A stretch of DNA of 64,000 bases, taken from UHGV virus genome UHGV-1550212, one strand, 5' to 3'. The notes beneath the pieces were generated by a model. It searched no databases. It was not told where the DNA came from and saw only the letters and a list, made by a program, of their open reading frames with translations. The translations under genes were made by a program, and so were the position numbers. Origin of the DNA: a virus. This document shows, in pieces, positions 22,838 to 62,428 of the stretch. Within the stretch, counting starts at the first letter, position 1. Every line of letters begins with the position of its first letter.

Positions 22838-22860
22838 TTTTTTTTATATTGTACAACGTA
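22838..22860 (-). promoter_or_regulatory. promoter-like element (CGTTGTACAATATA...)
   Basis: Minus strand reads ACGTTGTACAATATAAAAAAAACC immediately upstream of ATG 22827; same TTGTAC+TATA element as at six other loci. Confidence 0.4.
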
Positions 22861-22956
22861 AAGCATGCATTTGCATCTGTGTACGTTATTTTTATGCTGA
22901 GCACTCTGCGTAAAATAGCAAAATGCTTATTTTACGCAGGGTACTACAAATTAACT

Positions 22957-25900
22957 TTATCGTACGATGAATGGCTTGTTAGAGTCTTCAATAATCATTG
23001 AGCCGATGCCATGCAGCTCTTGAGTAACCTCGACAGATACATCTTGTGCAGTGTTGTATGAGCACTTGAATGCTGCAACTCGACTAAATGCGTCAATGTC
23101 TGAATAACTGAGTTCATCAACTTGTATTGAGATTTCACCAATTGCTGGCGCAGTCTTTGATGGTGTAATTGTGATGTCATGCAGCCAGCCCGGATTGCCA
23201 ACAATGACTGCAGTCAATGATTCACCATCAATTGGATTGACAACTTCATAATTGAAGCTCAAAGTCTTTGATGAGTCATCAGTTGTTGCTGACGCAGGCG
23301 TAATGTTGATTGTTGTTACGCCTTTCGCAGCCTGAACAATTTGTGCAGTAACATCTTGAGCATTGATGTGAGAGAACTTAACTGAGCAGCTACGTTGTTC
23401 TGTCGTTAAGTTGCGGTCACATTCAATAGTCAAGTAGCCTTTGCCTGTGTTATCATCATATTCGAAATTTGTGTCAGTGAATACGCCAGCTCCATTAAGA
23501 ACTTCATATGACAACTGCTGACCTGCAATTGGATTGCCAACAGTGACCTCAAAGACTGCTTGAGTATCTGTTGACTTCAATTGAGCAATAATCGGCTCAA
23601 CAGTTATTGTCGACACGCCTTGAGCTGCTTGTGTAATGTTGACTGTTACGTTGTCAGCAGTCATATATGACAGTCTCAAGTATAAGTTACGAGTAGCTGT
23701 TGCAGTGTTGATGTCAAGCGCAAATTGTATTGTGCCAGCTGACATATTTACTACAGGTTCGCCAACAAAGCCAGAGCCCTCTGCAGCAACTGTCAGTGTT
23801 TCGTCTTCAATAGGATTGGTGATGCTAAAGTTAACTGTAAACGAACCACCATTAGCTGCTGCGTTGATTGTCAGCGGTTCAGCATTGATGACTGTAGCTT
23901 CTTTAGCAGCCTGAGCAAGCGATACTGCTACATTGTCTGCAGTTGGATATTGTAGTACAATGTTTGCTGTACGAGTGCTTGTTTGCAATGTCTTGTCATA
24001 ATCAAATGTAATCTTGCCATCAGCAACTTGAACATTGTGAATCCAGCTTTTTGTTGCATATGCAGTGACTGCAGCACCAGCATAGCCATTACGAATTTGA
24101 TATGTAATTTCAGATGAACCGCCAGCAGCATTAAGTGACATAGAACTTGTGACAATGATTTCAGGCCTTGTTGATGCACTTGTGCTGTATTGAACTACAG
24201 ATGCAATTACACGAGGCTCAAATATGACAGCATTTGCAGAGCCGCCAAATGTCGGTGTTGCAATCACATAGATTGGCCAAACTCCACTTGATGCGACATT
24301 GCGTAAGATTGCTCGATAGTGCAGTTCATTGCATGCATCTTGCAATTCACTCCATGTTTTTGCAGTGTCAATTGTTGTCAAGCATGCAGGCAACACCGCA
24401 CATGTTGATGGCTTATCGGCGTCAATAGGTGTTGCATTGCCACTTGCTATTGGTTTGTAGCTCAAGTCGACTTTGACTGATGCATAACCATTGCCATACA
24501 CAATGAATGGCACAGTGATATCAAGCAAAATATCGACAGTTGCAGGCATGTTCAGATATGCTGGCAGCGGTACAAGCGTTTGCATTGCAGTAGCACCTGG
24601 CACATTGTCATCGAATGATTCAACATACACAGGTGGCGTCAAATCATCTTTGTGAGCATATTCTGCATGAGTGTGGTCTGAATGTGACACTGTGCTTGCA
24701 TAACCAGACCCAGCAAAGTCTTTATTGAATGCAGACTTCTTTGCTTCTTCAGTCAATCTGCCAGAGCCATCATATGCCAGCACAGTATTTGATGCGCCGA
24801 CACCTGCTGCAAGATGATTTGAGCCATCAATGAAGACATGTTTATATTGACGTTCAAACAAATGAGCATCAAAATTGTCAAATATCGAATTGAACAGCTT
24901 TTTGACTGCGGATGCTGTAGGCAGATGCTTGTTTGCATTTGCGCCATCAATGATGATACTTGCCCAATTGTCTGAGCTCTTGAAGATGCCAAGAAGCATA
25001 TCGATGACTTTGCCAGTAGCGTCTGTGCCAAGAACACTTGCACCAGGCAGTTTCATCAATTGTAAGTCGACTGTTGCAGCAAGTTTAAGCAACTGCTTTG
25101 TCAATGTCAGAATGTCTGTGACAACTCCAGCATCTGACAATGCTGCAATGCGATATGACTGATTGATGAGTTGCGCAAACTTATATGCACGAATGAATGA
25201 CTCTCGCTTTGCTTCTGCATCCAAGCCTTTTGCCAAGAACAACTCATCATATTTCAGATTTGCATATGACAATATGTCAAGCTCATTGACTGCAGATGTA
25301 AAATGATTGCGAAGTCTAATGCCCTCATATGATTGCCACAATGCAGCCAAATCAGCAAATGACTTGACATGTGAATCATCTGATGCAAAGCCAAACACAA
25401 GACCGCTGTTAAAGTCGTTTTGCAACAGCATATGTGGAAAAGCATCAATGCCTGGCAACTGATTCTTTTTGTCTGCATCAAGACGATTCAGTGTTCGTTG
25501 TGTGAGGTCGTAATAGTAATATGGATTGCCCAATATCTGCACAACTGGCTTTGCTGCTTTGTTGTTTGCATTGCCAAGACCATCAATTTGTGTATCACTC
25601 GGTGCAAGCAGAATAACTGAGCTGTCAACGTTATTGTATCGAGGCACACTTTCAAGCCCTATTGACAATGCGCCTGTATGCTTGTTTGAGTAGCTGTTGT
25701 CGATTTCTGCACCAGGCTGGCCATCTGCTGCAATGTTGAACATTGCTGCGTATGACTTGATTGTACCGCCGTACTTTGTTTTGATGAGCTCTTCAATGAT
25801 TTGCGTAATGATGACATTCAAGTTATCATTGTCACTTGTCAGCAATTGCAAGCCCGTAAATTGCCACCATTGCGCATCATCTGATGACGCGTCATACCAG

Positions 25901-26295
25901 TACACTTTGCCATCTGGTGCAATGACCCAGTCTGCGTATGACAAAGCATCTGTATGCAAAATGTTGCAAAACGCGGGTTTGTTTGCATCTGAACAGAACT
26001 CATTGAATGCTGCAGCATCGACAACTTTTGCAGTACCTGCGTCATTTTGCGTAGCTGACCAATCACTGCCAAATGTTGCATTGATATCAGCAAGTGATGC
26101 ATACATAATGCGGTTGCCTCGATAGCCATCGAAGCCAGGCAAACCGCGGTCACCAGTTTCACCAATACGACCCTTAAATAGGGGGGAATTCACAATTCTA
26201 CTGAAATTGTAATTCAAAATTTCACACAACTCTGCATAAGATGTGACTTGAAGTTTTTTCAGTACAATTGGCTGTGCTTTATGTTCTGCAGACAT
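22957..26295 (-). CDS. tail fibre/spike-like protein with short collagen-like motif and C-terminal Ig-like repeats
   Basis: 1112 aa, ATG confirmed. N-terminal GRIGETGDRGLPGFDGYRGN is a Gly-X-Y run; the C-terminal third contains repeated Ig-like blocks (VT.TQA..V.TI). Confidence 0.5.
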   Translation of the reverse strand: MSAEHKAQPIVLKKLQVTSYAELCEILNYNFSRIVNSPLFKGRIGETGDRGLPGFDGYRGNRIMYASLADINATFGSDWSATQNDAGTAKVVDAAAFNEFCSDANKPAFCNILHTDALSYADWVIAPDGKVYWYDASSDDAQWWQFTGLQLLTSDNDNLNVIITQIIEELIKTKYGGTIKSYAAMFNIAADGQPGAEIDNSYSNKHTGALSIGLESVPRYNNVDSSVILLAPSDTQIDGLGNANNKAAKPVVQILGNPYYYYDLTQRTLNRLDADKKNQLPGIDAFPHMLLQNDFNSGLVFGFASDDSHVKSFADLAALWQSYEGIRLRNHFTSAVNELDILSYANLKYDELFLAKGLDAEAKRESFIRAYKFAQLINQSYRIAALSDAGVVTDILTLTKQLLKLAATVDLQLMKLPGASVLGTDATGKVIDMLLGIFKSSDNWASIIIDGANANKHLPTASAVKKLFNSIFDNFDAHLFERQYKHVFIDGSNHLAAGVGASNTVLAYDGSGRLTEEAKKSAFNKDFAGSGYASTVSHSDHTHAEYAHKDDLTPPVYVESFDDNVPGATAMQTLVPLPAYLNMPATVDILLDITVPFIVYGNGYASVKVDLSYKPIASGNATPIDADKPSTCAVLPACLTTIDTAKTWSELQDACNELHYRAILRNVASSGVWPIYVIATPTFGGSANAVIFEPRVIASVVQYSTSASTRPEIIVTSSMSLNAAGGSSEITYQIRNGYAGAAVTAYATKSWIHNVQVADGKITFDYDKTLQTSTRTANIVLQYPTADNVAVSLAQAAKEATVINAEPLTINAAANGGSFTVNFSITNPIEDETLTVAAEGSGFVGEPVVNMSAGTIQFALDINTATATRNLYLRLSYMTADNVTVNITQAAQGVSTITVEPIIAQLKSTDTQAVFEVTVGNPIAGQQLSYEVLNGAGVFTDTNFEYDDNTGKGYLTIECDRNLTTEQRSCSVKFSHINAQDVTAQIVQAAKGVTTINITPASATTDDSSKTLSFNYEVVNPIDGESLTAVIVGNPGWLHDITITPSKTAPAIGEISIQVDELSYSDIDAFSRVAAFKCSYNTAQDVSVEVTQELHGIGSMIIEDSNKPFIVR

Positions 26296-26357
26296 ATTGT
26301 TCAGATGTTTTGCTTTGTATATGTATCGAATCTCATTGCATTTGATTATGTATCACT

Positions 26358-26397
26358 GTGTGCATTTTGCATCACGAAGTGCATTTTGCATATCATC
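26358..26397. promoter_or_regulatory. two copies of TGCATTTTGCAT operator-like core
   Basis: GTGCATTTTGCATCAC (26360-26375) and GTGCATTTTGCATATC (26379-26394) in the 100-bp gap upstream of the fibre gene 22957..26295. Confidence 0.4.
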
Positions 26398-35289: not shown

Positions 35290-36585
35290 CTATTGTTTGC
35301 GTTGTAATGTCAGTAGTCCACAGTCATATACAGGTAAAAATCCTGCAGCATTGTAGTCTTCTGCATGTGATATGTCATTGTCTATAAAATGCTCACCAGT
35401 TCGCATATTATGCCAATGACATTGTATAACATTGCTTACTAATTTATAGTCATCTACATATTTTGTAGGGTCTTCTTTTGACAAGTCTATTGTAATAACG
35501 TCGGCAGTTTTCAATTGTTCTGTGTCATCGATGATTGACTTTAGCAATGCGACAATTGTATCAGCGTCATCCCAATCCCAAATTGTGACGCATCGATAGC
35601 CTTGCGACATTGCTTTGCAACATTTGTCTGCATGACTATTTGCATGTCTATGCCAATTTGCTGCAGAGCGGCCTGTCATATACTCAAAGCTATACGCACT
35701 ATTATGCGTAAACGTTGGATTGATTTCAATTGCTATGTTCTCATAGCGTAAGTCATATGTAAATGATTCTATTTGCGGTTGCTCAAACTCAAATTGAACG
35801 TTAAGCGATTCTAACAAGTATCGTTGCCACCATTGATTTTGCTTAGATATGATGTGACCTTGCGCAAGTTTACAATGTGTAGTCATGCAATAATATGGCA
35901 CACCATAACGCATCATATTTGTACGTACAACTGCTTGTGTGCGTCGTTTTAAGTCACCGCCCCACTTGTTGCCATACCGTTCAAGCTTTGTTTGCGTTGC
36001 CAGTTGTATATTCACACATCCATTTGCTTTGCCATATCGTTCAAGTTTGACTTGCGTAATTTTGTCCATAGGCCCAAATGCATTACCAAATTGTGCAATC
36101 TTTGTAGCTTTCATTTTGTCAATATTGCCAACACCTTTGCTGCCAAATCGAACAAGCTTAGTGTCGCCAACTTTGCATTTAACATCATGCAATTGTGATA
36201 TGAATTCTACACCGTATTTGAGCAAGTTATTGATGCGACCATTATAACGCTGTTTAATGATGCCATGCGATGTTTTGCGTGGTGCATAACGAACAAATGG
36301 TGTATTAGCAAGTTCAGCATCTCGCAATTCTTCAAGTTCTTTTATTCGAGCTGCATGTTCAGATGCGTTATCATATTGCAACGCGCCAGCATGACGTTCA
36401 TATGGCAATCTTCCATGCTTACGTATGAAAGCAATTTTGTTTGCATATTGCACACGTATCTTACTATGTGTAGATACTCTTGCGCTTAATTTTGCATATG
36501 GCGTTTCTGCAATCAATTTATCACGTTCAGCTTCAAGTTCTTTTATTCGAGCTTCAAGAGCATCACCAGTTAGTCGTTCAGCCAT
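35290..36585 (-). CDS. homing-endonuclease-like protein, paralogue 2 (with internal N-terminal module duplication)
   Basis: Track ORF 35290..36633; start placed at ATG 36583-36585 (MAERLTGDALEARIKELE). Coiled-coil N-terminal module present twice (nt 36300-36360 and 36500-36560 share CTTCAAGTTCTTTTATTCGAGC), R/K-YG repeats, C-terminal block IEINPTFTHNS ... VYDCG. Divergently adjacent to the terminase start. Confidence 0.4.
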   Translation of the reverse strand: MAERLTGDALEARIKELEAERDKLIAETPYAKLSARVSTHSKIRVQYANKIAFIRKHGRLPYERHAGALQYDNASEHAARIKELEELRDAELANTPFVRYAPRKTSHGIIKQRYNGRINNLLKYGVEFISQLHDVKCKVGDTKLVRFGSKGVGNIDKMKATKIAQFGNAFGPMDKITQVKLERYGKANGCVNIQLATQTKLERYGNKWGGDLKRRTQAVVRTNMMRYGVPYYCMTTHCKLAQGHIISKQNQWWQRYLLESLNVQFEFEQPQIESFTYDLRYENIAIEINPTFTHNSAYSFEYMTGRSAANWHRHANSHADKCCKAMSQGYRCVTIWDWDDADTIVALLKSIIDDTEQLKTADVITIDLSKEDPTKYVDDYKLVSNVIQCHWHNMRTGEHFIDNDISHAEDYNAAGFLPVYDCGLLTLQRKQ

Positions 36586-36652
36586 TGTGCATGAATGTTC
36601 AATATGTAAATTCACTATATGTACATATAACACGAATATTCAAGTTAGATGC

Positions 36653-38712: not shown

Positions 38713-39216
38713 TCATCGTTTTCGATGGAAGACTTTGAATTTGTATCGTAACGTTCTGTCATTATCTGTGCATGTGTATAGTGCAGACTCAGATTTTTTA
38801 GTCCACATTCGCCAATTGACTGCAGGAAATCGAACGTCGCCTTCAGCATAATTGTCAATCATCGTCAAGTACATTCTGTCTGCATAAATCATTGCTTCTT
38901 CAAACAACTTAGAACCGCCGATGATAAACATGTTAGACGCAAATGCAGACTTGCAATATGCTATTGCATTGGCTAGCGTGCTAAATACGAAATAGTCGCT
39001 TGTTGGCTGCAATGTAGAGCTTATAACAATGTTAATTCTGTCGGGCAAGGGCTTGCAATTCATCGACTCAAAAGTCTTACGACCCATGATGACAATGTGA
39101 TTCTTTGTGAGTTTCTTGAAGTGCTGCAAGTCATGTGGAATATGCCAGGGCAAATCACCATTGCGACCTATGACATTGTTATTTGATACTGCTGCTATGA
39201 TATTGATGTATTGCAT
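38713..39216 (-). CDS. folA: dihydrofolate reductase
   Basis: 167 aa, ATG confirmed. IIAAVSNNNVIGRNGDLPWHIP...IVIMGRKTFESM...FIIGGSKLFEEAM aligns motif-for-motif with bacterial/T4 DHFR (IAALAVDRVIGMENAMPW...VIMGRHTWESIG...MVIGGGRVYEQFL). Confidence 0.8.
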   Translation of the reverse strand: MQYINIIAAVSNNNVIGRNGDLPWHIPHDLQHFKKLTKNHIVIMGRKTFESMNCKPLPDRINIVISSTLQPTSDYFVFSTLANAIAYCKSAFASNMFIIGGSKLFEEAMIYADRMYLTMIDNYAEGDVRFPAVNWRMWTKKSESALYTCTDNDRTLRYKFKVFHRKR

Positions 39217-40252: not shown

Positions 40253-41254
40253 TCAATGAGCCCAGTTAAGCCATACGTCATCAATTGATTGCGTAGTATA
40301 TTCACAATCATACAAAAAATCTACAAGAGCATCATAATTGCGTCTGCCCCATAATTTGTGCTTCAGACTGCCGATTTCTTCGTCTTTCTTGTAATTGTTG
40401 TAGATTCGTTCAAGCATTGCTGAAGAACCTGCTTTTGTGTCATATTCTGCCTCAAACAAACAGCCACAACTTGCTTTCTTTACAATTATGCGGTCATACA
40501 TTGACACTACTGCTCTCAAAATGCTCTTTGACTGCAATCGTAGCGTGTCAAGTTTATTGCATTGAGACTCCCATTTTTTGTACAACGTGTTGAATGATGG
40601 ATTGTCAAGTAGCTTGTCTGCAATTGCATACGCAAATGACATTGCATGCCAATCATCTGTTCTGAAGTCCTCTGTGTTATGCTTGTTGTAATAGGCGCCA
40701 GTCGGTGCACAGCCAATAAACGCTTCAAGCTGTCCAGCATCATTTCGCAATATACGCAATGAATGCTTGTTAAAGAATGACACCCATATGCGATTGTGCG
40801 CAACTATCACAGAATACTTGTTTTCGCATTTTGCAGCAGCATCACTTATTGAACGACAATCAATTTGCTTGCAAATTGATGTTATGAATGCTGCAAACTC
40901 TTCATGCTTCTTGAGCTTGTTTTGCGTGACGTCATACAGATGTAGCAGTCCATTGACAACAGAGTCAAGCTTAGCTTCGTCAGATTCAAAACTGCCAAAT
41001 GTTTCAAAGACTCGCATCTCTTTGTCAACAAGTGTTTCTACAATTGCATCAATATCTTTGCTAAGTAGTGTTTTGGGTTCTAACGTTGCATGCATAAATG
41101 TCAATTGAAGCAATGCATTTGCAGTTTGCTCAGACAACACATCATTTGCACGTGCAATGTCGATTGCAGCTTTAAGTTCTGTTCGTTTGACTTCAAAATA
41201 TCGTTGCAGCTGTAGTTTAAGTTGCTGAGAGTAGACGTTATTTGGTCTGAGCAT
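40253..41254 (-). CDS. hypothetical protein
   Basis: 333-aa ORF, ATG confirmed. Confidence 0.45.
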   Translation of the reverse strand: MLRPNNVYSQQLKLQLQRYFEVKRTELKAAIDIARANDVLSEQTANALLQLTFMHATLEPKTLLSKDIDAIVETLVDKEMRVFETFGSFESDEAKLDSVVNGLLHLYDVTQNKLKKHEEFAAFITSICKQIDCRSISDAAAKCENKYSVIVAHNRIWVSFFNKHSLRILRNDAGQLEAFIGCAPTGAYYNKHNTEDFRTDDWHAMSFAYAIADKLLDNPSFNTLYKKWESQCNKLDTLRLQSKSILRAVVSMYDRIIVKKASCGCLFEAEYDTKAGSSAMLERIYNNYKKDEEIGSLKHKLWGRRNYDALVDFLYDCEYTTQSIDDVWLNWAH

Positions 41255-41294
41255 ATTTGGGACGGATTCTTGTCTTTACTTTACTATATGAAAA

Positions 41295-48768: not shown

Positions 48769-48775
48769 TTGTTGT

Positions 48776-48844
48776 TTGTTGTGATATGTGATATGATGCA
48801 AAATGCATATTCATATTGTATATGAATATGATACAACAAACGTG
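48776..48844 (-). promoter_or_regulatory. promoter-like region upstream of clamp loader
   Basis: Minus strand: CGTTTGTTGTATCATATTCATATACAATATGAATATGCATTTTGCATCATATCAC; combines the TTGTA+ATAT element with one TGCATTTTGCATC core. Confidence 0.45.
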
Positions 48845-49876
48845 TCAATTTTGCACAGCATGACCGCAATCGTACACAGGCAAAAAGCCTGCGTCAAGCA
48901 TCTCTTGTGTATCTTGTCCACAATCTTTAACATATTGTCGTGTTTTGAAATTATGCCAATGCTTATGAATTGTTGACTTGTCATCTGACAGCTGTGGATT
49001 GAGCGCGAAGTCAGTCGAGTCTACTGGTTCACCTGCAAGATGCTTTCTAATGGCATCAATGACTTCATTGTCATCCATCCATTCGAATATTGTAATGCAA
49101 GTGTAGCCATGCTTGAGAGCAAGCTGAGTTTTGTTGAAGTGATAGTCGAATGCAAGTGGATGATTATGCGTTGATTTGCCCATTGCATATGCAAATCCAT
49201 ATGCTGCATTGTGTGAAAACGTTGGGTTAATTTCAATGAGCAATTTGCAATGTTCATTGCTGTAGTTCAAATCAAATGAAAATCTATGCAATGAAATTTC
49301 ATCATAGCCACAATTGATGCAAAGTTCTTGCTGCAGTTTATCATGCCAATATTTGTTTATCGCTGAAATTGGGCGACCATTTGCATCTCTGCATCTCTTT
49401 GTCATGCAAAACCATGGCACACCATATCGTTGCAGCGTTGTTGCATTGATTTTTTGTTTAGGCCCAAATGCATTGCCATACAAGCGTTGTTTTGTTTCAA
49501 GCATTTTGTTAATGTTGCTTAGAGAGTCACCCCACTTTGCTCGTTTTGTTTCAATTGATTTTGCGACGTTGCCCCATGCATTGCCGTAGCGCTCTAAATT
49601 TGTTTGTCGTTGTTTAGCGACATTGCCCATGCCATTGCCATATTTTGCACGTTTTGATGCAACCATTTTCGCAGCAACATCTTTGCATTGATTGCTATGT
49701 TCTACACCATATTTGTGCAAACATGCTATTTTTCGATTGTACTTTGTTTTAATTGCGCCATGCGATGTTTTACGTGGCGCATATCTCACAAATGGCGTTT
49801 CTGCAAGCAATTTGTCTCTTTCCTCTTCAAGTTCTTTTATGCGAGCTTCAAGAGCTTCTCCTGTCAATTTTTCCAT
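48845..49876 (-). CDS. homing-endonuclease-like protein, paralogue 3
   Basis: 343 aa, ATG confirmed. N-terminus MEKLTGEALEARIKELEEERDKLLAETPFVRYAPRKTSHG nearly identical to paralogue 2; R/K-YG repeats; C-terminal IEINPTFSHNAAYGFAYAMGKS ... VYDCGH. Sits between the helicase terminator and the clamp-loader promoter. Confidence 0.4.
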   Translation of the reverse strand: MEKLTGEALEARIKELEEERDKLLAETPFVRYAPRKTSHGAIKTKYNRKIACLHKYGVEHSNQCKDVAAKMVASKRAKYGNGMGNVAKQRQTNLERYGNAWGNVAKSIETKRAKWGDSLSNINKMLETKQRLYGNAFGPKQKINATTLQRYGVPWFCMTKRCRDANGRPISAINKYWHDKLQQELCINCGYDEISLHRFSFDLNYSNEHCKLLIEINPTFSHNAAYGFAYAMGKSTHNHPLAFDYHFNKTQLALKHGYTCITIFEWMDDNEVIDAIRKHLAGEPVDSTDFALNPQLSDDKSTIHKHWHNFKTRQYVKDCGQDTQEMLDAGFLPVYDCGHAVQN

Positions 49877-50110: not shown

Positions 50111-53100
50111 TCAAAAGCTTCGATTCATCAGTTCATCAGCAAGTCGTTCAAGTTCAGTAGCAGCTTTTTGTCGCTTGGCTTCTCTTTCTGCTTCAACATC
50201 TGCTTTGCTTACTGGCGATTCCAAGTCTTTTGCAGGTGCATCTTCAATAACAGTCAAATTGCTGTCATCAAACTTGTTGTCAATGTCAACTCGTTTGAAT
50301 GATATGATGCCTGATGACACCTGAGCTTCTGCTTGTTGTTTGTCAAATACAAGGCTGCTAATTGTTGATTGCAGTTTTGTAGATGCCAGCAATCGTTCTG
50401 TGTTATCTGCAAAAATGTCATCAGTAAACAATACATGCAGCATTTGAGCAATCGAATCACGACTTCTGCTGCAGCCACTGTCAAATGCAGGCAACTGCTT
50501 AATTGCATAGATGTCGCCATCATGTACAGTAATTGCATTGAACATGCGTCTTGCAATTGATGCCACCGAATCAAGTACATCTGGTGATTGCGGCGTGTAG
50601 CCTCGTGAATCGAAGTATATGAGTGCAGAGTTCTTAACAATTTGGTCGACTACTTCTGATGCAATTGAGACTGCATCTTTGCTGTTATTGAAGACATCAT
50701 TTAGCATATATGACACAATCTTGATGTTCGACTCATGCATTGTGCCACTTGAACCCGCATCAAATATTGACACTGCATCTTTGATTGATTTGAGTCTTGC
50801 AAGTCGATACATGTCTTTGTTGTCAATGACATACATATCGATAGTCTTCATGATGGTGTCAAACAAGTAATGATGCGATAGTGTTCGCAATGCATGTCGC
50901 CAATCATCAAACACTCGTCTGTCTTCTACAAGATATGTAAGCTTGCCATTTTTCTTGACAAGTTCAAATCTGTCTGATTCTTGAACTTGCTCTGCTGGCA
51001 AATTCATGATAACTTCGAATGTAGCCTGATTGACAAATGATGCAAACATTTTGCCAATCTTGCTGTTCTTTTCTTGACGGTACTCTGCTCGAGCTTCTTT
51101 TGCAGCATTGAGAACTTGAGCAATCATCATGTCATCTGCAACAACATCTTGCACGACTTTGCATTCATAGCCATACGATGACAATGTGTTCTGAATGATG
51201 ACAAGCTGAGTAGCCCATTGTCGCCATTTCTGCTCAAACATATTGAGCTTATACGCAGTCAAGTGAATCTTGATTTCACCTGTGTACGGGTCACGATAAA
51301 AGTACGGTGCATTGAATGCCCATTCAAAGAAATCAAAGAGACTTCTTGAGTCATTGCGCTTTGTCTGCATTTGCAAAATGTCCCAGAATGACAGCTTTTC
51401 AACATTTGTTAATGTCAAGTCAAGCTCGTCATATGCAGTAATGTTTCGTGGGTCGCCATTTGATTTTGTCATACTGAAATACACATATGACTGAATGGAT
51501 ATTTTGCGAAGCCGTGAGTTAAATTGTTCGATTTCTTGACCTGTAAATGCCTCGTCATAAATGACATCAAATTCATAGCTGTCATTGATATCAATGCCAA
51601 CTGACAAGTAATTTGTGCAGAACAGCAGTTCAATATCACCAATTGTGCCAGATTCATTGATTGATTGAACAAAGTCATGCATTGCATTGTCACGCTTGTA
51701 GTACTTGACTTTTGGATTTCTGCCAAGCATCATTCGAACTGCGCCTACAATTGCATGAGTAAATGCGTCGCCTTTGTTTGTTGGGAACAGAATTCGTTTG
51801 CCTGCTTTAATTGCTGTTGAGATATGTGATGCAAGTTTTGTAATCTTGTCGCCGTCATGTTTGCAGCAGACAAATCTGACACCTTTGTTGTAATTAAGCG
51901 GCTTGTCGCAGAATATGACAGTGTCAAAATGACAGAACATGTGTTCAGCTACAGGTGTGCCTGTCATCAAAATGACTTTTGTCTGCAACTTTGTTAAGTT
52001 GTCAATCACATTTGCAGGTACAACATCACGATATGCAGACATTGTCAACAAGTGCGATTCGTCGACGACAACATAGTCATATAAAATTGACACTTCCTCT
52101 GGGTCAGCTAATGTAAATTTATCGAATGTCAAAGCTACATTGACATGCTTAGACAATTCAAGACCTCGTTGACCAAATGAGCAATACATGCCAAGGTCTG
52201 ACATCTCAATCTTTGATTGCAAGATTGATGTGTATGGTTCAATCAGCATGACTCGTTTTCCATCACGAGTAAGCTGCTTGATAAATTCTGTCTTGCCTGA
52301 GCCTGGCCGTGCAATCAAGTAATTGATGCCAGTTACAAATACTTCTTCAAGTTCATGCTTGTATGTTGACAAGTACTCATTTTCTGCAAGTTTGAAGACA
52401 TGCGTATGTCGAAGTTCAAAGTCTTTTTGCTGTGCAACTTTCGACATAATGTACTGACTGATTGCATCTTCTGTATTGTGTTCAGCAATCAGTTCATTGA
52501 CAGTTACAGATGACTTGTTAGCAAACTTGAATTTGAAGCCGTGCTTTTCACGAAGTTCTTTGACAGATGACCATACGCACGGACAAGTGCCTGCTGCATT
52601 ACGTTCAACTGCAGACCTGAATGAGTTTGCCCAGCTGTTATGCTCTGCATTGAACTTTGGATTACCCGAACACATTTGCAAGAACATTTGCAACACATGT
52701 TCATATTGACCACCTGTAGTTGACTTCAAATCATATAGCCATGCAAGTGTATAGGCCAAGCGATATCTACCAGTGTTGTCGTAGTTTTGTGGAGTGATTG
52801 TGAGCATTGTGCCCTCTTCAATCATTGTGATGTCATCACGTTGAGTGAAGACTTGCTCGCCGTCAGTCATTGCAGTCATATGAGACTTCGGCGCATAATC
52901 AAAACGACCTCGAAGTCTATCAAACATTGTCTTCAGTTTGTCGATGCAAAATTTTGCATCAACTGAAGCATAGATGCTAACATCAAACTCTGGTTGCTCA
53001 ATGAATTGCGCGTTTTGATTGATGATGACATCTTTATCACGTGCAACAAACAACGGCTGACTAATTTTGCAAACAGATGCATCAACTACTCGAGATTCAG

Positions 53101-53710
53101 ACATTTGACCTGACTTTTCAAGTCGTCTTGACAATGTATTGTTGACAGGATGCACTTCTCGAGCCATGTCATGATTGCCCTCTGATTCAAGCTGGTCACT
53201 CAGCAACACAAGGCATTTCCAAATGACATACAATTTTGCCTCATATGCATCAAGATATGCTTTCTTTGCTGCAGAAGCATTTTCAGATGACACAAATACA
53301 GCATCTTCAGTTTGAATTGACAGAGGCTTTGAGATTGTGTAGACGTGCAAGCCTGAACCAGAAGTCGACTTAAGCACAGCAACACACCACGGATATTTGC
53401 AAAGCATTGCAGCCAAACGTGGTTTGATGACTTCTACAAGTTCTTTTGAGTGAAAGTCCAAATCGACTGGCTGCAGACCTGACCAAGTCAAGTAGTCATG
53501 AACTTGTTGTTTTGGTCGAGCAAACATTGTCGATTGCGACACAAAGGGACGATGTGCTTTATCTACTGTGTCAAGTGACTCATCATTTGCAACTTTCATG
53601 ATGAGGTCATACAATGAAATTTGTTGCTTATTGACAGTGTCTTCTGTTTTACGAACACTGTCGCCCATCATGAACTTTATGCCACTGAGCAAATCTTTGA
53701 CGTTTGACAT
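50111..53710 (-). CDS. superfamily-2 DNA helicase (large replication/recombination helicase)
   Basis: 1199 aa, ATG confirmed. Walker A ARPGSGKTEF, DExH box VVVDESHLL, motif III-like LMTGTP; long N- and C-terminal extensions of unknown function. Confidence 0.6.
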   Translation of the reverse strand: MSNVKDLLSGIKFMMGDSVRKTEDTVNKQQISLYDLIMKVANDESLDTVDKAHRPFVSQSTMFARPKQQVHDYLTWSGLQPVDLDFHSKELVEVIKPRLAAMLCKYPWCVAVLKSTSGSGLHVYTISKPLSIQTEDAVFVSSENASAAKKAYLDAYEAKLYVIWKCLVLLSDQLESEGNHDMAREVHPVNNTLSRRLEKSGQMSESRVVDASVCKISQPLFVARDKDVIINQNAQFIEQPEFDVSIYASVDAKFCIDKLKTMFDRLRGRFDYAPKSHMTAMTDGEQVFTQRDDITMIEEGTMLTITPQNYDNTGRYRLAYTLAWLYDLKSTTGGQYEHVLQMFLQMCSGNPKFNAEHNSWANSFRSAVERNAAGTCPCVWSSVKELREKHGFKFKFANKSSVTVNELIAEHNTEDAISQYIMSKVAQQKDFELRHTHVFKLAENEYLSTYKHELEEVFVTGINYLIARPGSGKTEFIKQLTRDGKRVMLIEPYTSILQSKIEMSDLGMYCSFGQRGLELSKHVNVALTFDKFTLADPEEVSILYDYVVVDESHLLTMSAYRDVVPANVIDNLTKLQTKVILMTGTPVAEHMFCHFDTVIFCDKPLNYNKGVRFVCCKHDGDKITKLASHISTAIKAGKRILFPTNKGDAFTHAIVGAVRMMLGRNPKVKYYKRDNAMHDFVQSINESGTIGDIELLFCTNYLSVGIDINDSYEFDVIYDEAFTGQEIEQFNSRLRKISIQSYVYFSMTKSNGDPRNITAYDELDLTLTNVEKLSFWDILQMQTKRNDSRSLFDFFEWAFNAPYFYRDPYTGEIKIHLTAYKLNMFEQKWRQWATQLVIIQNTLSSYGYECKVVQDVVADDMMIAQVLNAAKEARAEYRQEKNSKIGKMFASFVNQATFEVIMNLPAEQVQESDRFELVKKNGKLTYLVEDRRVFDDWRHALRTLSHHYLFDTIMKTIDMYVIDNKDMYRLARLKSIKDAVSIFDAGSSGTMHESNIKIVSYMLNDVFNNSKDAVSIASEVVDQIVKNSALIYFDSRGYTPQSPDVLDSVASIARRMFNAITVHDGDIYAIKQLPAFDSGCSRSRDSIAQMLHVLFTDDIFADNTERLLASTKLQSTISSLVFDKQQAEAQVSSGIISFKRVDIDNKFDDSNLTVIEDAPAKDLESPVSKADVEAEREAKRQKAATELERLADELMNRSF

Positions 53711-53740: not shown

Positions 53741-53767
53741 TTATATTGAATATGATACAACACTTGT
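53741..53767 (-). promoter_or_regulatory. promoter-like element upstream of helicase gene
   Basis: Minus strand: GTGTTGTATCATATTCAATATAA, 30-55 nt upstream of ATG 53710. Confidence 0.45.
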
Positions 53768-53778
53768 GACATTTTTGC

Positions 53779-54420
53779 TTAGAATGCGACACCGACATGT
53801 GCGCCAATCATAGCAGCTTTTGAGTCAACTTTCTTCATGCAGCCTGCATCAAGACCTATACGCCATTGTAAACTACTCTTACCAAATTGACGAGTGTATG
53901 ATAGCCAATACATGTCAATTGATTGCTTGTTAAATGTGCCAAATGCATAGTGAAAGTCTACATTATTTCGTGGTGCATCATGGTCAATGACTTTGATTGT
54001 CGTAGTTTGCACTTCACGAATAACTGTGTCTGCTTTGAACATCAAAACGTCCCAATCACGTTGCTTGATTGTGTTTTGCGTAATGTAGTCTTTTATTGCT
54101 ATTTGCAGTTTGTCTGACTTCAATGTGTCTGCATACTCATACTGTGCAAAGTAGTCATTAACATACTGCATAAGCTTTGTAGTGTCTATGTCAACTACAA
54201 GAGTCGTGTCACGATACACTGGCACTGGTATTGTCTTGCCAGGCATATGAACTGTGTCGTGTTTAATAACAGTGTCAGCTTTGACAATTGGCTCTGCATT
54301 TATAGCATCTTGATATGTTTGCCAGTCTTTTGGGCTGACAAAATGCCAATCTTTGAAAATCATGACAGCAGTCAATACAATGACTGCTGTCATGACTATG
54401 ATTTTGAGTGTCTTCAACAT
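53779..54420 (-). CDS. hypothetical membrane-anchored protein
   Basis: Track start 54426 is GTG; ATG at 54418-54420. N-terminal transmembrane segment LKIIVMTAVIVLTAVMIF. Confidence 0.45.
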   Translation of the reverse strand: MLKTLKIIVMTAVIVLTAVMIFKDWHFVSPKDWQTYQDAINAEPIVKADTVIKHDTVHMPGKTIPVPVYRDTTLVVDIDTTKLMQYVNDYFAQYEYADTLKSDKLQIAIKDYITQNTIKQRDWDVLMFKADTVIREVQTTTIKVIDHDAPRNNVDFHYAFGTFNKQSIDMYWLSYTRQFGKSSLQWRIGLDAGCMKKVDSKAAMIGAHVGVAF

Positions 54421-54426: not shown

Positions 54427-56022
54427 TTATGCTTTTGCAGTTACAGATGATAAGACAATTCGTTGCAGGAAATTGCCTGCAGTGTCCATAATGTCCCAAG
54501 TAGTACTTGAGCCCTCATTGTTTGACAATGTAAATCTGATGTAATTCGATGTTCTTGTCAATTCATCGCGAATGATATTGTTGCCTGAACGTGCAATGTA
54601 ACTGCCAAATTTTTGCAATGCTATCTGAGCATTGTCTGTGTCAAGCAATGCAATTGATATGTCTACAGAAGAGCCCTTTGGGCAGTTGATTGTCTTGACA
54701 ACGAACAATGATTGAGCATCATCATTTATCACAAGCTTGCTGATAAGCGTAGGCACAGGTCTGTCAATCTGCAAGACTCTATCTACGCCCGCTTTTGCAT
54801 TGCCAATGACTGTCTTTTGATTGATGACTTTATGCACAATGTCATATGATTCAAATTTGACTTGAGGTTTACGATGCCAGCAAAGCATTGCAATGTCATC
54901 TTCAGACAGAATCAATTGCATTGAACGACTTATGCGTACTTGTCCAAGAGTTGACACGTAATCAAGCACAGCAGTAACATACACAAGAGCCATTTTTGGC
55001 TTGTTATCTGGATTGTCATCGTCTACAATGATAGGCGACCATTCAACTGCTTGTGTCGCGTTGTCAACATTTGCAAATTGCATATGTCGTATGCTTGAAT
55101 CTATGAGAACGCCTTCTGCATTGTATGCTTGCAAGATGACGTCATACGTGACATTCGCATCATCAATCAACTCAAGTCTTGAAATCCAATCTGACAGTTG
55201 CATTGTACGATGCTTCATCTGCATTTCAATGCATGCAGGCGCAAATTCGGATTCTTGTCGCAGTACTACATCTGCATACAAAGTCTCATCTTCATTGCCG
55301 GTCAACAGCAATGCTTGTTTGATTTCTCGAAGAGCAAACTGAGTAAATGTTCTGACTGCCCCAGATACAAGTGACTGCTCAAATGAGTAAACTTTGTCAT
55401 CATACACAAGTCCAATCTCAACATTGATATTTGATTGCAATGCTCGTCTTGTAGATGTGCCAAACACGAACTCACGAACTTTAGACATTTCATCACTGTT
55501 CATTGAACACAAGAAGTCAATATCGACAATCTTGAATTCAATTTCAGTAGTGAACTGCTCATTGTCAATGACGACAATCTTGTTTTTGACAGGTGTAAAC
55601 AATGAACGTGCTTTGATGTCAAGCAATGACATCAAACTGTATTTGACATCATCAATGTCAATTGACAGTCTAAGCCAAACGCCAATGACATTTGATGCAT
55701 AACGAAATCCACTGACTGCGTATAATCTGCATGTCAGATATTGCAGTTTGTCAAGCGATGTCGTCTTATATGCCGAATCTGCAAAATTTGCGACAATTGT
55801 GTCTGTGTATGAGTCTGGTGTCAGATATGTCGGCACCTGATATGTAGTGTTTTGTGCAACTGAACTGTATTCACGAACATTGTGTGTTTCTGCACCATCG
55901 GCATTCAATAGATGCACAACACCGCCACTTGCAATCTTATGCAAGGGCACGTCTGTCATGTCGTAGACACTTGAATCACCAATCTCAAGTGCAAAGTCTT
56001 CAGTCAGTCTCAGTCGTTGCAT
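54427..56022 (-). CDS. hypothetical protein
   Basis: 531-aa ORF, ATG confirmed. Confidence 0.5.
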   Translation of the reverse strand: MQRLRLTEDFALEIGDSSVYDMTDVPLHKIASGGVVHLLNADGAETHNVREYSSVAQNTTYQVPTYLTPDSYTDTIVANFADSAYKTTSLDKLQYLTCRLYAVSGFRYASNVIGVWLRLSIDIDDVKYSLMSLLDIKARSLFTPVKNKIVVIDNEQFTTEIEFKIVDIDFLCSMNSDEMSKVREFVFGTSTRRALQSNINVEIGLVYDDKVYSFEQSLVSGAVRTFTQFALREIKQALLLTGNEDETLYADVVLRQESEFAPACIEMQMKHRTMQLSDWISRLELIDDANVTYDVILQAYNAEGVLIDSSIRHMQFANVDNATQAVEWSPIIVDDDNPDNKPKMALVYVTAVLDYVSTLGQVRISRSMQLILSEDDIAMLCWHRKPQVKFESYDIVHKVINQKTVIGNAKAGVDRVLQIDRPVPTLISKLVINDDAQSLFVVKTINCPKGSSVDISIALLDTDNAQIALQKFGSYIARSGNNIIRDELTRTSNYIRFTLSNNEGSSTTWDIMDTAGNFLQRIVLSSVTAKA

Positions 56023-56089
56023 ATTGTCGAAATCTTGTTTGTGTTATATGTACACAAAACTGCACCAGCAATTTTGCTGGTGCAGCTGG

Positions 56090-57719: not shown

Positions 57720-57740
57720 TGTAGCTAATTTGATTTTATT

Positions 57741-57760
57741 TCCTATATTATTGTACAACG
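57741..57760 (-). promoter_or_regulatory. promoter-like element upstream of topoisomerase gene
   Basis: Minus strand: CGTTGTACAATAATATAGGA; contains the palindromic TTGTACAA core. Confidence 0.4.
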
Positions 57761-57766
57761 ATGTTG

Positions 57767-57940
57767 TTAGATTTGCATCATTTGAATATCTTCAAATCTG
57801 CAAAGCTGCGCAGTAGACTGAATACGGAATACTAAGAATACACCAGAATCAGTGACGCATTTAACAAGTGCATCTTCATTTGTGGGCGTGTACAATACGA
57901 CATCCCAAGGTTCAAGTTGTTTTGCTTCTTCTGCTGTCAT
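57767..57940 (-). CDS. hypothetical small protein (57 aa, not in ORF track)
   Basis: ATG at 57938-57940 (MTAEEAKQLEPWDVVLYTPTNEDALVKCVTDSGVF...), stop at 57767-57769; fills an otherwise uncoded gap. Confidence 0.25.
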   Translation of the reverse strand: MTAEEAKQLEPWDVVLYTPTNEDALVKCVTDSGVFLVFRIQSTAQLCRFEDIQMMQI

Positions 57941-58920: not shown

Positions 58921-59164
58921 TTTGTGTATGTTCTTGATTTGCTTGTTCTGCTAAGTTGTTTATGAATGCTTTGAGCAATGTAATGATTGTTGTTAGCAAC
59001 TGAATTTGAAACAATACAATGCTAAACACGACAATTGCTACAACGCAAAATGAAATGAAGAGCATATTGATGTCAAATTTGTTTGCTATCAATGTTTGCA
59101 GCCAAGTTATGACTGCAAACATTGAAATCAGTATGAATGCTTTGTGCTGTGATAACGATTTCAT
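58898..59164 (-). CDS. small two-transmembrane-segment protein (holin-like topology)
   Basis: 88 aa, ATG confirmed; two hydrophobic segments (FILISMFAVITWL and FISFCVVAIVVFSIVLF) and a polar C-terminus. Confidence 0.35.
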   Translation of the reverse strand: MKSLSQHKAFILISMFAVITWLQTLIANKFDINMLFISFCVVAIVVFSIVLFQIQLLTTIITLLKAFINNLAEQANQEHTQNDSGTAN

Positions 59165-59880
59165 TTGAAATGTGTGGATGTTGGATTAGTGTCGGTCATT
59201 CTAACATGCCAATCATAAATGAACCATCTTGCGAGGTCATCATTTTTGATGTTATGAGTTTTGACATACTGTTCAGGACCTAATGCCTCACCAGTTTCAG
59301 GATTGACTGCGAAATGAGATTCATCTACATTAGTAGACTTGTTTTTGATGTTTGAGATTCGGAGCTTTGTATGCAGTTCAGTGCCATCAGATTGCAGTGT
59401 TTTGACATAGAATGCAGTTTTTGTCGTTGCTTCATTGTCAAGCCATACTCCAAACTTAACTCCGTGCGATTTCCAGTATGCATTGTCAGCATCCCTGATT
59501 GCTTTGAAGTTCGGGTCATCCAACCAAGGTTTGAAGACGTATACAGCATGTTGTTCTTTTCGAGTGATTTCGCCTTTGCCTTCACAAACTGTATGATACA
59601 GCCGCATTGCAGTTTCTTCATCAAAATAGTAAGTCAGATTGCCTGGCTTATCAAATGTGCCAAGCTGTTGACCATCGATTACAAGAATGAATGTGTACCG
59701 CGAATCCTTAAAGAATTCTACTTGTACAGGCTGTTTGTGCTGTTTGCTGTTAAGCAGTCTGTCAATTGTAATGACTGCCCAGTTGGTGCCTGTCTTTGTT
59801 TTGTTGCCGTGAAACAGTTCAGGATATGAAACTGTGTAAGGCAATGCTTTGTACTTCCAATGTTCATTAAAGCTTTTCAT
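59161..59880 (-). CDS. hypothetical protein
   Basis: 239-aa ORF, ATG confirmed. Confidence 0.5.
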   Translation of the reverse strand: MKSFNEHWKYKALPYTVSYPELFHGNKTKTGTNWAVITIDRLLNSKQHKQPVQVEFFKDSRYTFILVIDGQQLGTFDKPGNLTYYFDEETAMRLYHTVCEGKGEITRKEQHAVYVFKPWLDDPNFKAIRDADNAYWKSHGVKFGVWLDNEATTKTAFYVKTLQSDGTELHTKLRISNIKNKSTNVDESHFAVNPETGEALGPEQYVKTHNIKNDDLARWFIYDWHVRMTDTNPTSTHFK

Positions 59881-59955
59881 ATGTAGAGATTTTTGTAGTT
59901 TGTATCAATTGCATTCTATATCAATTGTATCTTGTATCAAATACATTATATTGAT

Positions 59956-60000
59956 ATATGATAATTGTACTACAAAAATCCCAAATTTGCACACTTTGAT
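59956..60000 (-). promoter_or_regulatory. composite promoter-like element
   Basis: Minus strand: ATCAAAGTGTGCAAATTTGGGATTTTTGTAGTACAATTATCATAT, about 75-120 nt upstream of ATG 59880. Confidence 0.5.
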
Positions 60001-60039
60001 AATCAAAAGTGCAAACAAAATTCAAAGTTATATTGTACA

Positions 60040-60069
60040 TCACAAAGTGCAAATTTGCACTTTGTGATG
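60040..60069. promoter_or_regulatory. perfect 30-bp palindrome (candidate operator)
   Basis: ATCACAAAGTGCAAATTTGCACTTTGTGAT is its own reverse complement; core GTGCAAATTTGCAC is shared with the composite promoter-like elements. Confidence 0.55.
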
Positions 60070-60215
60070 TTAAAATGCCCCATTGTACAATATTTTGTGC
60101 TATTTTGCACAAAGCAGCATGTTAAAATGTAACCATTTATAACGCTGCAAAATGTCTGCATAAAATAAGCAGCTTAGCAATCTAAGCTGCTGTCATTGTA
60201 TGCATGCAGTCACTG

Positions 60216-60701: not shown

Positions 60702-61079
60702 GCAAATATATTTTTGTTTGTATATGTACATAAAAGAGCAAGTTCTCAATGTGGAGAACTTGCTCAGCTGACCTGTTGCCAGGTGAAAGCGTGGTGCAGC
60801 ACCTTGTGCTGCAATGGCTATGCTGCCATCGCCATAACGGGCTGAGCATTGCCCAGCATCATTACACGACCAGCTGCATTAAGCGTACGCTTTGCTTTGT
60901 TGAAAAATTTGCCAGTTATCTGGTATCTGCACATCTATTCAAGCGACCTACTATGCAATCAAATGCCTGTCGAGCCCAATGTTTGAGCAGTTGTTTGTCA
61001 GATGCTCAGCTGACTGCAGTCTTTCTGAGTGTATCAAGTTCAGCGATTCTGCATCTTTGCTAAATGGCAATAGTTCAGG

Positions 61080-61155: not shown

Positions 61156-61160
61156 GCATT

Positions 61161-62092: not shown

Positions 62093-62182
62093 ATTTACAA
62101 ATGCAATCTATTTCACAACTGTTTGCATTTGCATTGTTTAACACTAAAAATATGATTCATCTAATCAAAAACCAGAGAATTG

Positions 62183-62256
62183 TAGGGTAGACAGGACTCA
62201 AACCTGCGACCACGTGGTCCCAAACCACGCATTCTAATCAACTGAACTACTACCCT
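62183..62256 (-). tRNA. tRNA-Pro (anticodon TGG)
   Basis: Minus strand: AGGGTAG-TA-GTTC-AGTTGATTA-GAAT-G-CGTGG-TTTGGGA-CCACG-TGGTC-GCAGG-TTTGAGT-CCTGT-CTACCCT-A; all stems pair. Confidence 0.8.
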
Positions 62257-62262
62257 AAGTAG

Positions 62263-62334
62263 TTGAACCGTCTGGACTCGAACCAGAAATGGCTGAACCA
62301 AAATCAGCTGTGTTACCGATTACACCACGATTCA
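62263..62334 (-). tRNA. tRNA-Gln (anticodon TTG)
   Basis: Minus strand: TGAATCG-TG-GTG-TAATCGGTAA-CAC-A-GCTGA-TTTTGGT-TCAGC-CATT-TCTGG-TTCGAGT-CCAGA-CGGTTCA-A; U1-A72 as in bacterial tRNA-Gln. Confidence 0.75.
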
Positions 62335-62387
62335 ATCAAATGCAAATCTTTGTAAGGCGTTTGCAATCCTGTAATTTGTTTATGTAT

Positions 62388-62428
62388 TTTATAGTGATAT
62401 AATACTACAAACATTTATGATTTGCACC
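62388..62428 (-). promoter_or_regulatory. composite promoter-like element upstream of the tRNA cluster
   Basis: Minus strand: GGTGCAAATCATAAATGTTTGTAGTATTATATCACTATAAAATAC, about 55-95 nt upstream of tRNA-Gln (first tRNA in transcription order). Confidence 0.45.

Follow-up and report, generated by a model that had tools for sequence, protein, structure and literature searches.

A composite promoter-like element with a fixed 17-nt spacer precedes replication, nucleotide-metabolism, and tRNA genes of an uncultured T4-related phage

The 64,000-nt stretch of virus DNA analyzed here (UHGV-1550212; the window) corresponds to the opening 64 kb of the 174,628-bp IMG/VR contig 3300045988_152288, and a twin contig about 95% identical to it comes from the same sample. 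Nearly every gene of the window lies on the minus strand, and only 6.9% of the sequence is non-coding. The replication and metabolism genes encode a clamp loader of the Gp44-lid type, two topoisomerase II pieces, an NAD-ligase, a dihydrofolate reductase (DHFR), and an exonuclease; other products are a terminase large subunit, a baseplate wedge protein, a tape-measure-like protein, seven transfer RNAs (tRNAs), and a sigma-70-family protein. An initial annotation of this DNA described a composite promoter-like element, made up of the blocks GTGCAAATTTG, TTGTWGTA, and TATAT, in front of seven genes or gene clusters. All seven copies are present where they had been placed, at gene starts and reading 5' to 3' on the minus (coding) strand, and the evidence set out below leaves us with little doubt that these composite elements are promoters.

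A search of the window for GCAA-N17-TAYNAT yields 12 matches, compared with 3.0±1.8 (maximum 8) in 200 dinucleotide shuffles, and 10 of the 12 are non-coding, all ten of them on the coding strand. The more demanding GCAA-N12-TGTNG-TAYNAT has 6 matches where 0.01 are expected. Unsupervised expectation maximization on the non-coding DNA returned the same motif as its best 20-mer, TTTGTTGTACAATATTCAAA. With a profile hidden Markov model built from six sites, the best extra matches were the remaining sites, minus strand and intergenic, and these best extras included one coding-strand match (51871+, E=0.023). Over-representation of k-mers across the whole window was discarded as a motif finder because it was swamped by codon usage. 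Three further copies (41322-41285, 60060-60023, and 60110-60073) bring the total to ten sites, with three copies in tandem upstream of gene 59161..59880. The four copies initially taken for shorter versions (48820-48842, 53741-53767, 57741-57760, and 22838-22860) proved to be full-length, each having (N)TGCAA exactly 17 nt upstream of TAYNAT. The copy nearest each gene or tRNA leaves a leader of 14-77 nt, and the two distal tandem copies lie 145 and 195 nt away.

The anatomy of the element was counted over 22 non-redundant sites (25 before de-duplication), which come from six or more diverged genomes. Sites in relatives were located with the motif profile, as MAFFT alignment of the regions upstream of the clamp-loader and 1200-aa genes failed outside the blocks owing to divergence. 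The spacer between the two blocks is exactly 17 nt in all 25 sites. The upstream block reads T-34 (20 of 22), G-33, C-32, A-31, and A-30 (22 of 22 each), and A-29 (20 of 22), followed by a weak TTT(G/T). Information within the spacer is below 0.4 bit at -24, -23, and -21 to -19, and 0.43-0.62 bit at -22 and -18. Downstream of this come an extended -10 stretch with T-17 and G-16 (22 of 22), T-15 (21 of 22), W-14, and G-13 (22 of 22), and then the -10 itself, in which T-12, A-11, A-8, and T-7 are each found in 22 of 22 sites around a variable Y-10 and N-9. The start region C-3 A-2 T-1 A+1 T+2 A+3 is kept in 13-20 of the 22 sites. This information profile is that of a sigma-70-family promoter, and the three blocks of the initial annotation are therefore best read as the -35 element, the extended -10 together with the -10, and the start region. 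A palindromic core was initially thought to be general to the element, which does not hold: TTGTACAA occurs in two sites only, and the consensus TGTWGTAY lacks dyad symmetry, which makes a dimeric operator unlikely. The suggestion of a transcription-factor site fares no better, as dyad symmetry is not conserved across the sites and the second half of TGCAAATTTGCA is not kept.

The element is rare among viruses as a whole and recurs at equivalent places in the relatives of this phage. Among 2.9 million IMG/VR contigs, exact TGCAAA-N11-TGTWGTAYNAT-N5-TATA is limited to 18 stretches. This contig accounts for six of the matches, two of which lie beyond the window, the twin for another six, and contigs 3300030471_000046 and 3300030471_000050 for four; four further stretches are single matches, with three distinct sequences, in unrelated phages whose genes have Shine-Dalgarno sequences. 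A loose core pattern, TGTWGTAYNATATNNNTATA, was also run against IMG/VR and gave no information, being flooded by chance matches. Metagenomic relatives of the replication module (L126, L127, and L129) have clamp loaders 85%, 58%, and 60% identical to that of the window, and in all three the element precedes the orthologous clamp-loader, ~1200-aa, and ~147-aa genes while the remaining intergenic sequence has diverged. The sites at 48819..48856 and 53743..53780, the second of which has its -35 overlapping the stop codon of the upstream gene, have orthologous sites in these relatives. In L151-L153, relatives recognized by a sigma protein 55-58% identical, the ortholog of the weak site 22839..22876 is, in L153, a full GTGCAA-17-TATAAT. 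Where the window and its twin differ, the changes are in the spacer and not in the blocks.

Genes behind the element share a functional theme. Besides the window sites listed in Table 1, copies beyond the window precede the ribonucleotide reductase (RNR) large subunit, the other topoisomerase II subunit, and a gene resembling single-stranded DNA-binding protein (SSB), so that the set comprises the topoisomerase II subunits, the clamp loader, the NAD-ligase operon, the DHFR operon, the tRNAs, the RNR large subunit, and SSB. The site at 44433..44470 fills a 54-nt gap in front of 43974..44417, which heads an operon with the NAD-ligase gene 41836..43740, and the operon behind 41285..41322 ends with the DHFR gene 38713..39216. 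The tRNA-cluster promoter is predicted to start near 62392, leaving a 58-nt leader to tRNA-Gln. Of the tandem copies before 59161..59880, the strong one has a 77-nt leader with direct repeats in it, and the middle one has its -35 inside the palindrome GTGCAAATTTGCAC and additionally matches the host-type pattern TTTG-N19-TAACTTTG.

Table 1. Promoter-like elements and the sigma-factor gene in the window (class 2, composite element; class 1, single-element motif)
Feature	Position	Strand	Sequence and context
Class 2, 7-tRNA cluster	62390..62427	-	GTGCAA-17-TATTAT-atcact-ATA
Class 2, weak, distal tandem copy before 59161..59880	60073..60110	-	GTGCAA-17-TACAAT; lacks TGTWG and CATATA
Class 2, middle tandem copy before 59161..59880	60023..60060	-	GTGCAA-17-TACAAT
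Class 2, strong copy before 59161..59880	59955..59992	-	GTGCAA-17-TACAAT-tatcat-ATA
Class 2, topoisomerase II subunit gene (ATG 57719)	57741..57778	-	ATGCAA-17-TACAAT
Class 2, 1199-aa gene 50111..53710	53743..53780	-	AAGCAA-17-TATCAT
Class 2, clamp loader (ATG 48768)	48819..48856	-	GTGCAA-17-TATCAT-attcat-ATA
Class 2, gene 43974..44417 (147 aa)	44433..44470	-	GTGCAA-17-TACTAT-atcact-ATA; 18-nt leader
Class 2, new here, gene 40253..41254 and downstream operon	41285..41322	-	TAGCAA-17-TACAAT-tttcat-ATA
Class 2, weak, gene 22237..22827	22839..22876	-	ATGCAA-17-TACAAT
Phage sigma-70-family factor, 298 aa	18066..18962	-	Regions 2 and 4; region 3 largely missing
Host-like promoter before sigma gene	18997..19022	-	CACATGTGA-N13-TAAATTTA; 7/8 of TAnnTTTG
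Class 1, GTACATATA	60721..60729	-	After terminator hairpin; 28 nt before ATG of open reading frame 60216..~60700
Class 1	56045..56053	-	After terminator; 31 nt before ATG of 54427..56022; conserved at orthologous place in L127
Class 1, palindromic pair TATATGTACATATA	36616..36629		Divergent region, 35290..36633 (-) / terminase large subunit (+)
Class 1, GGTACATAT	21712..21720	-	After 11-pair terminator; 27 nt before ATG of gene ending 20110
Class 1	17968..17976	-	28 nt before ATG of 17448..~17950
Class 1	15225..15233	-	After 12-pair terminator; upstream of baseplate-wedge gene 13525..~15180
Class 1, palindromic pair	700..713		Between divergent genes 99..506 (-) and 785..1261 (+)
Class 1 variant, ATACATATAC	26317..26326	-	31 nt before ATG of 1112-aa gene 22957..26295
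Class 1 variant, GTACACATATAC	2945..2956	-	Upstream of 2305..2919

The phage is an uncultured, T4-related virus of about 175 kb whose host is most likely a member of the Bacteroidota. Its best cultured relatives, judged by the clamp loader and the sigma protein (28-36% protein identity), are Tenacibaculum phages PTm1/PTm5, Chryseobacterium phages MA9V-1/MA9V-2, and PAU, all of them large T4-related phages of Bacteroidota; the 'Sphingomonas' host strain of PAU was later reassigned to Sphingobacterium. None of 58 phage genes checked has a Shine-Dalgarno 4-mer, and their leaders are A-rich with A at -3, as has been described for Bacteroidota (PMC6847099). A Clostridial host is disfavored because the phage lacks any Shine-Dalgarno sequence and because of the hosts of its relatives. 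A megablast search of INPHARED with 20 kb gave no matches, and a search of GTDB genomes for the DHFR gene, which was used for host identification as a possibly host-derived gene, found no relative.

We compared the composite element with the promoter types that such a phage might be expected to use. The initial annotation saw only a loose resemblance to sigma-70 promoters, but the architecture is close, with two blocks at a fixed distance, a low-information spacer within 17±1 bp, T-12, A-11, A-8, and T-7 all invariant, and placement upstream of genes in the same orientation (10 of 10 intergenic window matches, with orthologous placement in relatives). Only the -35 hexamer differs from TTGACA: GTGCAA agrees with it at 3 of 6 positions, fewer than the 4 that an E. 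coli-type consensus promoter would show. With the canonical sigma-A promoter (TTGACA-17-TATAAT, with the Firmicutes -16 region), the element has in common the spacing, the four invariant -10 bases, an upstream TG extension, and a predicted start about 7 nt downstream. It differs in its -35, (G/T)TGCAA(A), which has 3-4 of the 6 TTGACA bases; in the invariant G-13 and a TGT at -17 to -15 where the canonical TG is at -15/-14; in the added conserved start region CATATA; and in that the inferred host phylum uses another promoter type. It is because of its -35 that a generic sigma-70 scan, which showed no enrichment in the window (63 vs 54.5±6.9; 28 vs 28.4±5.0), misses the element, flagging one of the seven sites covered. 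A generic terminator scan of the window likewise showed no enrichment.

In Bacteroidota promoters, T-12, A-11, T-8, T-7, T-6, and G-5 are nearly invariant and a TTTG lies near -33, and promoters of the E. coli type are non-functional in this phylum (PMC6847099, PMC2483708). The element has T-12, A-11, T-7, the AT-rich context, and presumably the host in common with this housekeeping type. The mismatch to the Bacteroidota -33/-7 consensus that the initial annotation had noted is borne out, as the sites read A-8, T-7, W-6, and T-5 and so lack T-8, T-6, and G-5 of TAHHTTTG, and TTTG lies at -28 to -25, the wrong distance, instead of ~19-21 nt upstream of the -7. Full matches to TTTG-N17-21-TAnnTTTG number only two in the intergenic DNA of the window.

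The phage shares with T4 a Gp44-type clamp loader, a baseplate wedge, a terminase, and the placement of replication and structural genes behind separate promoter classes. The proposed analogy with T4 middle promoters fits the downstream genes, which serve replication and nucleotide metabolism or encode tRNAs; in T4, the MotA box lies ~12 nt from the -10. The composite element lacks the T4 middle layout of a MotA box, TGCTTtA, near -30 used with MotA/AsiA: its TGCAAA is at -34 to -29, the -35 position, in a 17-nt geometry. Nor is it of the T4 late type, in which TATAAATA stands with no -35 and is read by a gp55-type sigma; the sigma in the window is RpoD-like with a region 4 and not gp55-like. 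The analogy with T4 late promoters, also raised initially, belongs instead to a second motif, G-TACATATA, that had not been split off from the composite element and is described below.

Other parallels come from phages whose own sigma-70-family protein redirects the host core polymerase to a phage-specific consensus, as do 7-11 gp47 (GTAAtg-16-aCTA) and phiEco32 gp36 (tAATGTAtA), and which keep the sigma gene itself behind a host-type promoter. The bipartite promoter of phage 7-11 is paired with a sigma whose C-terminus is region-4-like, and the single-element promoter of phiEco32 with a sigma lacking region 4 (PMC8948821). The consensus, the phage lineage (here T4-related, ~175 kb), and the host phylum all differ from those of 7-11 and phiEco32. 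The 7-11 promoters are late, while the composite class here would drive replication (middle) genes. SPO1 gp28 is another phage-encoded sigma with promoters of its own. For the large T4-related Bacteroidota phages (PAU, PTm1, and MA9V relatives), we found no description of promoters in the literature.

The sigma-70-family gene proposed at 18066..18962 is upheld by Pfam matches to regions 2 and 4, both above cut-off, and by phrog_351 (5e-25). Aligned with primary sigmas in the PDB, the protein has FSTYAYPWIKKYV in place of the cellular FSTYATWWIRQAI and STSGIHTI in place of TRERIRQI, and its family is limited to about a dozen metagenomic clusters. It is the one sigma factor found in the window, among whose proteins PHROGs gave no match to gp55, gp33, MotA, or AsiA; a survey of jumbo phages credits this phage group with RpoD-like and minimal gp55-like sigmas plus gp33 (PMC7824862). 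The window matches the MA9V-1-type host-like pattern in one place only, the host-like promoter directly upstream of the sigma gene. The MA9V-1 sigma gene has the same arrangement, CATATGTC-N14-TATATTTG, which in that phage also precedes many other genes, and a TAAwTTTA box precedes the sigma genes of L151-L153.

The second class, G-TACATATA(C/A) (class 1), has no -35 box and had been missed initially. The pattern GTACATAT has 12 matches in the window versus 1.9±1.5 in shuffles, and 10 of the 12 are intergenic after correction of over-extended open reading frames (ORFs). Class 1 copies lie 27-39 nt before an ATG, except that at 15233 (56 nt); several stand immediately behind strong terminator hairpins, among them the two best terminators of the 13-23 kb region, and the genes downstream are those for terminase, the baseplate wedge, and large structural proteins. 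The motif is conserved in L127, L129, and L151-L153. Counted by regular expression and gene calls in six related loci (110 kb, ~6% non-coding), 17 of 28 coding-strand [GA]TACATAT matches are intergenic, 12 of these 17 lie 26-36 nt before a start codon, and several are at orthologous positions; a nine-site profile run with nhmmer gave no significant matches in the relatives, the motif being too short. Six of eight positions are equal between TACATATA and the T4 late box TATAAATA, so that both the single-element architecture and the bases fit a T4-late likeness, with no gp55 among the window proteins.

Further features adjoin the class 1 motifs. An exact T4-late-type box, TATAAATA within the 13-mer GCATATAAATATC, is present at 3609-3616 (-), 38 nt before the ATG of 2976..3575, and this 13-mer recurs in front of the L153 ortholog of the baseplate-wedge gene. 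An alignment of the CATATA of the late motif with the start-site block of the composite element was rejected as the main reading, as it leaves no A-11-containing -10 upstream; the two CATATA blocks are alike. Next to the divergent late-type pair, positions 507-904 hold a ~34-nt repeat (gttttgatgcaagatgcaaaacaactaagatgtt) in three to four tandem copies, together with a G10 run at ~620, which could be an iteron-like or regulatory array. Short direct repeats also occur at 15160-15226 (2 x ~30 nt, TTCGAAGAGACYTATTCTCATRTGTGCACA) and at 26330-26395 (2 x GATGCAAAATGCAC).

On balance, we favor the reading that the composite elements are sigma-70-family middle promoters of a T4-related phage, recognized by the phage sigma 18066..18962 on the host core polymerase. 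This sigma is the most likely reader because the element lacks the host TAnnTTTG, because the diverged protein has both region 2 and region 4, and because its own gene has the only host-like promoter of the window. Region 4 would contact T-34 GCAAA-29, and region 2 the extended -10 (T-17 G T W G-13) followed by T-12 A-11 Y N A-8 T-7, with transcription starting at the conserved A of C-A-T-A(+1)-T-A. In such a program, host sigma-A would transcribe the sigma gene from its host-like early promoter; the phage sigma with host core polymerase would then act on the composite promoters to express the replication and nucleotide-metabolism genes and the tRNAs; and the T4-late-like G-TACATATA class would follow with the structural and packaging genes, its reader being either a gp55-like factor whose gene lies elsewhere or the same sigma aided by a co-factor.

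Several observations count against this assignment, which, like the start position and the timing, we infer from the anatomy of the element, its 17-nt spacing, placement, orientation, and conservation, the genes downstream, and the domains of the sigma. The residues of sigma regions 4.2 and 2.4 are unlike those that read TTGACA and TATAAT in cellular sigmas, so the protein does not positively predict such a specificity. In MA9V-1 and PTm1, two distant relatives that do encode homologs of the sigma, the regions examined contain no TGCAAA box. Outside phages, the strict pattern occurs in at least 120 bacterial genomes (L154-L273), nearly all of them Clostridia including Oscillospiraceae and Ruminococcus, with one match per genome; the Clostridial version, cTTGCAAA-N11-TGTWGTATAAT, stands in each case before a Shine-Dalgarno sequence and ATG of unrelated genes. 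Since these look like ordinary housekeeping promoters and hence good canonical sigma-A promoters, the element is not intrinsically phage-specific, and host sigma-A could read it if the host assignment is wrong. (The only match in a metagenome-assembled genome of Bacteroidales, L199, is a chance one with no protein in common with the window.) It is mainly for this resemblance that we keep as an improbable alternative the recognition of the elements as early promoters by an unmodified host housekeeping sigma, in a non-Bacteroidota host or by a tolerant sigma-A. T4 early promoters show comparable density and extended conservation, and T-12, A-11, and T-7 are common to the Bacteroidota -7 element. 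Against such recognition stand the missing T-8, T-6, and G-5, the distinct host-like TAAwTTTA promoter right before the sigma gene, the origin of the nearest cultured relatives from Tenacibaculum, Chryseobacterium, and PAU's 'Sphingomonas' strain, and the contrast between 0 of 58 phage genes with a Shine-Dalgarno sequence and Clostridial matches that all have one; E. coli-type promoters, moreover, fail in Bacteroidota (PMC6847099, PMC2483708). The composite and late motifs also have G-13 T-12 A-11 C-10 in common, so one sigma may read both, or the classes may divide along other lines than those proposed here. We think it rather unlikely that a single phage sigma serves both, with the composite element as a strong promoter (with -35) and G-TACATATA as a weak one (-10 only) and timing set by strength or a late co-factor. 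An upstream T/G-rich stretch is likewise shared, hybrid sites exist (e.g., ATGCAA-17-TACATA at L127 12102), and the window has yielded a single sigma; the late motif, however, shows T-8 A-7 where the composite element invariably has A-8 T-7, and it matches TATAAATA at 6 of 8 positions, the classes split cleanly between replication and structural genes, and the group is reported to have a minimal gp55-like sigma with gp33 (PMC7824862).

An activator could also take the place of the -35 contact, as in T4 middle transcription, TAYNAT then being the -10 for a host or phage sigma and TGCAAA(ttt) the box bound by a phage activator. The late class has the G-TAC -10 in common with the composite element and yet no such box, which would make the box a separable module; about 6 of the 22 boxes lie within a TGCAAA(T)TTTGCA inverted repeat; and TGCAAA-like repeats occur at variable distance near some of the late motifs, at 26330-26395 and 507-700. 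This arrangement is nonetheless unlikely in our judgment, as the box lies 17 nt from the -10 at every site, the optimum for region 4/region 2 geometry, the second half of the palindrome is not kept (C-24 in 2 of 22 and A-23 in 6 of 22), the -10 is not host-like as sigma appropriation would have it, and no protein of the window matches the MotA/AsiA families. Least probable of all, and in our view barely credible, is that the element is no promoter but a repressor operator repeat or a recombination or shuffling cassette between genes. Promoter-containing cassettes do mediate gene shuffling in T4-type phages, and the near-identity of copies 44470-33 and 59992-55 extends into the spacer, beyond what a promoter needs. 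An operator or cassette is at odds with the strict orientation with the genes, the lack of dyad symmetry, the two-block information profile with its uninformative spacer and invariant A-11 and T-7, the short leaders of the nearest copies (14-77 nt), and the retention of blocks but not spacers at orthologous positions in diverged genomes.

The sequence of the window by itself yields a coherent three-tier promoter map, with a host-like promoter ahead of the sigma gene, composite promoters ahead of the replication genes and tRNAs, and a single-element motif ahead of the structural genes. Phage sigma cascades and phage-specific promoter classes have long been known (SPO1, T4, phiEco32, and 7-11), and the mechanism is not new; the consensus is previously undescribed and belongs to an uncultured clade. 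A canonical-looking -35/-10 promoter inside a phylum with non-canonical promoters suggests a naturally orthogonal pair, and a sigma/promoter pair orthogonal to the unusual transcription of Bacteroidota would be of practical interest for engineering gut members of the phylum. A bolder extension, to which we give slightly less than even chances, is that a clade of gut, oral, and animal-associated Bacteroidota phages has a stripped-down RpoD-derived sigma, with region 3 lost and 2.4/4.2 rewritten, that reads TGCAAA-17-TGTWG-TAYNAT unseen by host sigma-A. If true, this would be a natural, fully orthogonal sigma/promoter pair insulating phage middle transcription from the host, and an expression switch transferable to Bacteroides or Prevotella engineering.

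The map also improves operon and start-codon annotation, several TTG 'starts' being the TTG of a promoter. Five ORF calls (13525-15237, 17448-17978, 20110-21723, 47794-48801, and 56298-57758) begin at such a promoter-motif TTG, in TTGTACA or TTGGTACA, and their true starts are the ATGs 27-60 nt downstream (~15180, ~17950, ~21690, 48768, and 57719, respectively). Several small composite-promoter genes at loci of the same genome or its twin, beyond the window (L136, L140, L142, L145, and L146), have in their leaders a conserved motif, AACCTCTAC, located 2-4 nt ahead of the ATG; the window version, aaatctctacatATG, is at 59881-59895 before 59161..59880, and the motif may be a shared translational operator. 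Direct repeats are present at 41733-41835 (2 x ~40 nt with internal inverted repeats) and, as caattgata(t/c)a, at 59881-59960, where the copy number differs in the twin contig. Short direct repeats of this kind in intergenic leaders and upstream regions may be regulator binding sites.

Two features lie apart from the promoters. At the end of the tRNA cluster, 60727-61169 (-) holds a candidate two-piece (permuted) transfer-messenger RNA (tmRNA), for which ARAGORN gives the tag end ...GNAQPVMAMAA* and the Rfam model tmRNA_permuted (RF04321) a full-model match (E=2e-4 in a 701-nt search) whose 30.8 bits fall short of the gathering score, 47; behind it lies a terminator hairpin at ~60765-60735. 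A segment of ~110 nt at 2096-2204, which forms the 5' region of a family of paralogous genes (1381..2136 in the window), recurs at 97-99% identity in at least three places of the genome (including L145 8882-8991 and L146 4196-4263). It contains a homopolymer of 6 C in the window and 7 in L145 that is interrupted in L146, and 7 bases put an upstream ATG in frame with the long ORF, whereas 6 put it out of frame. This variation could reflect phase variation, frameshifting, or assembly error.

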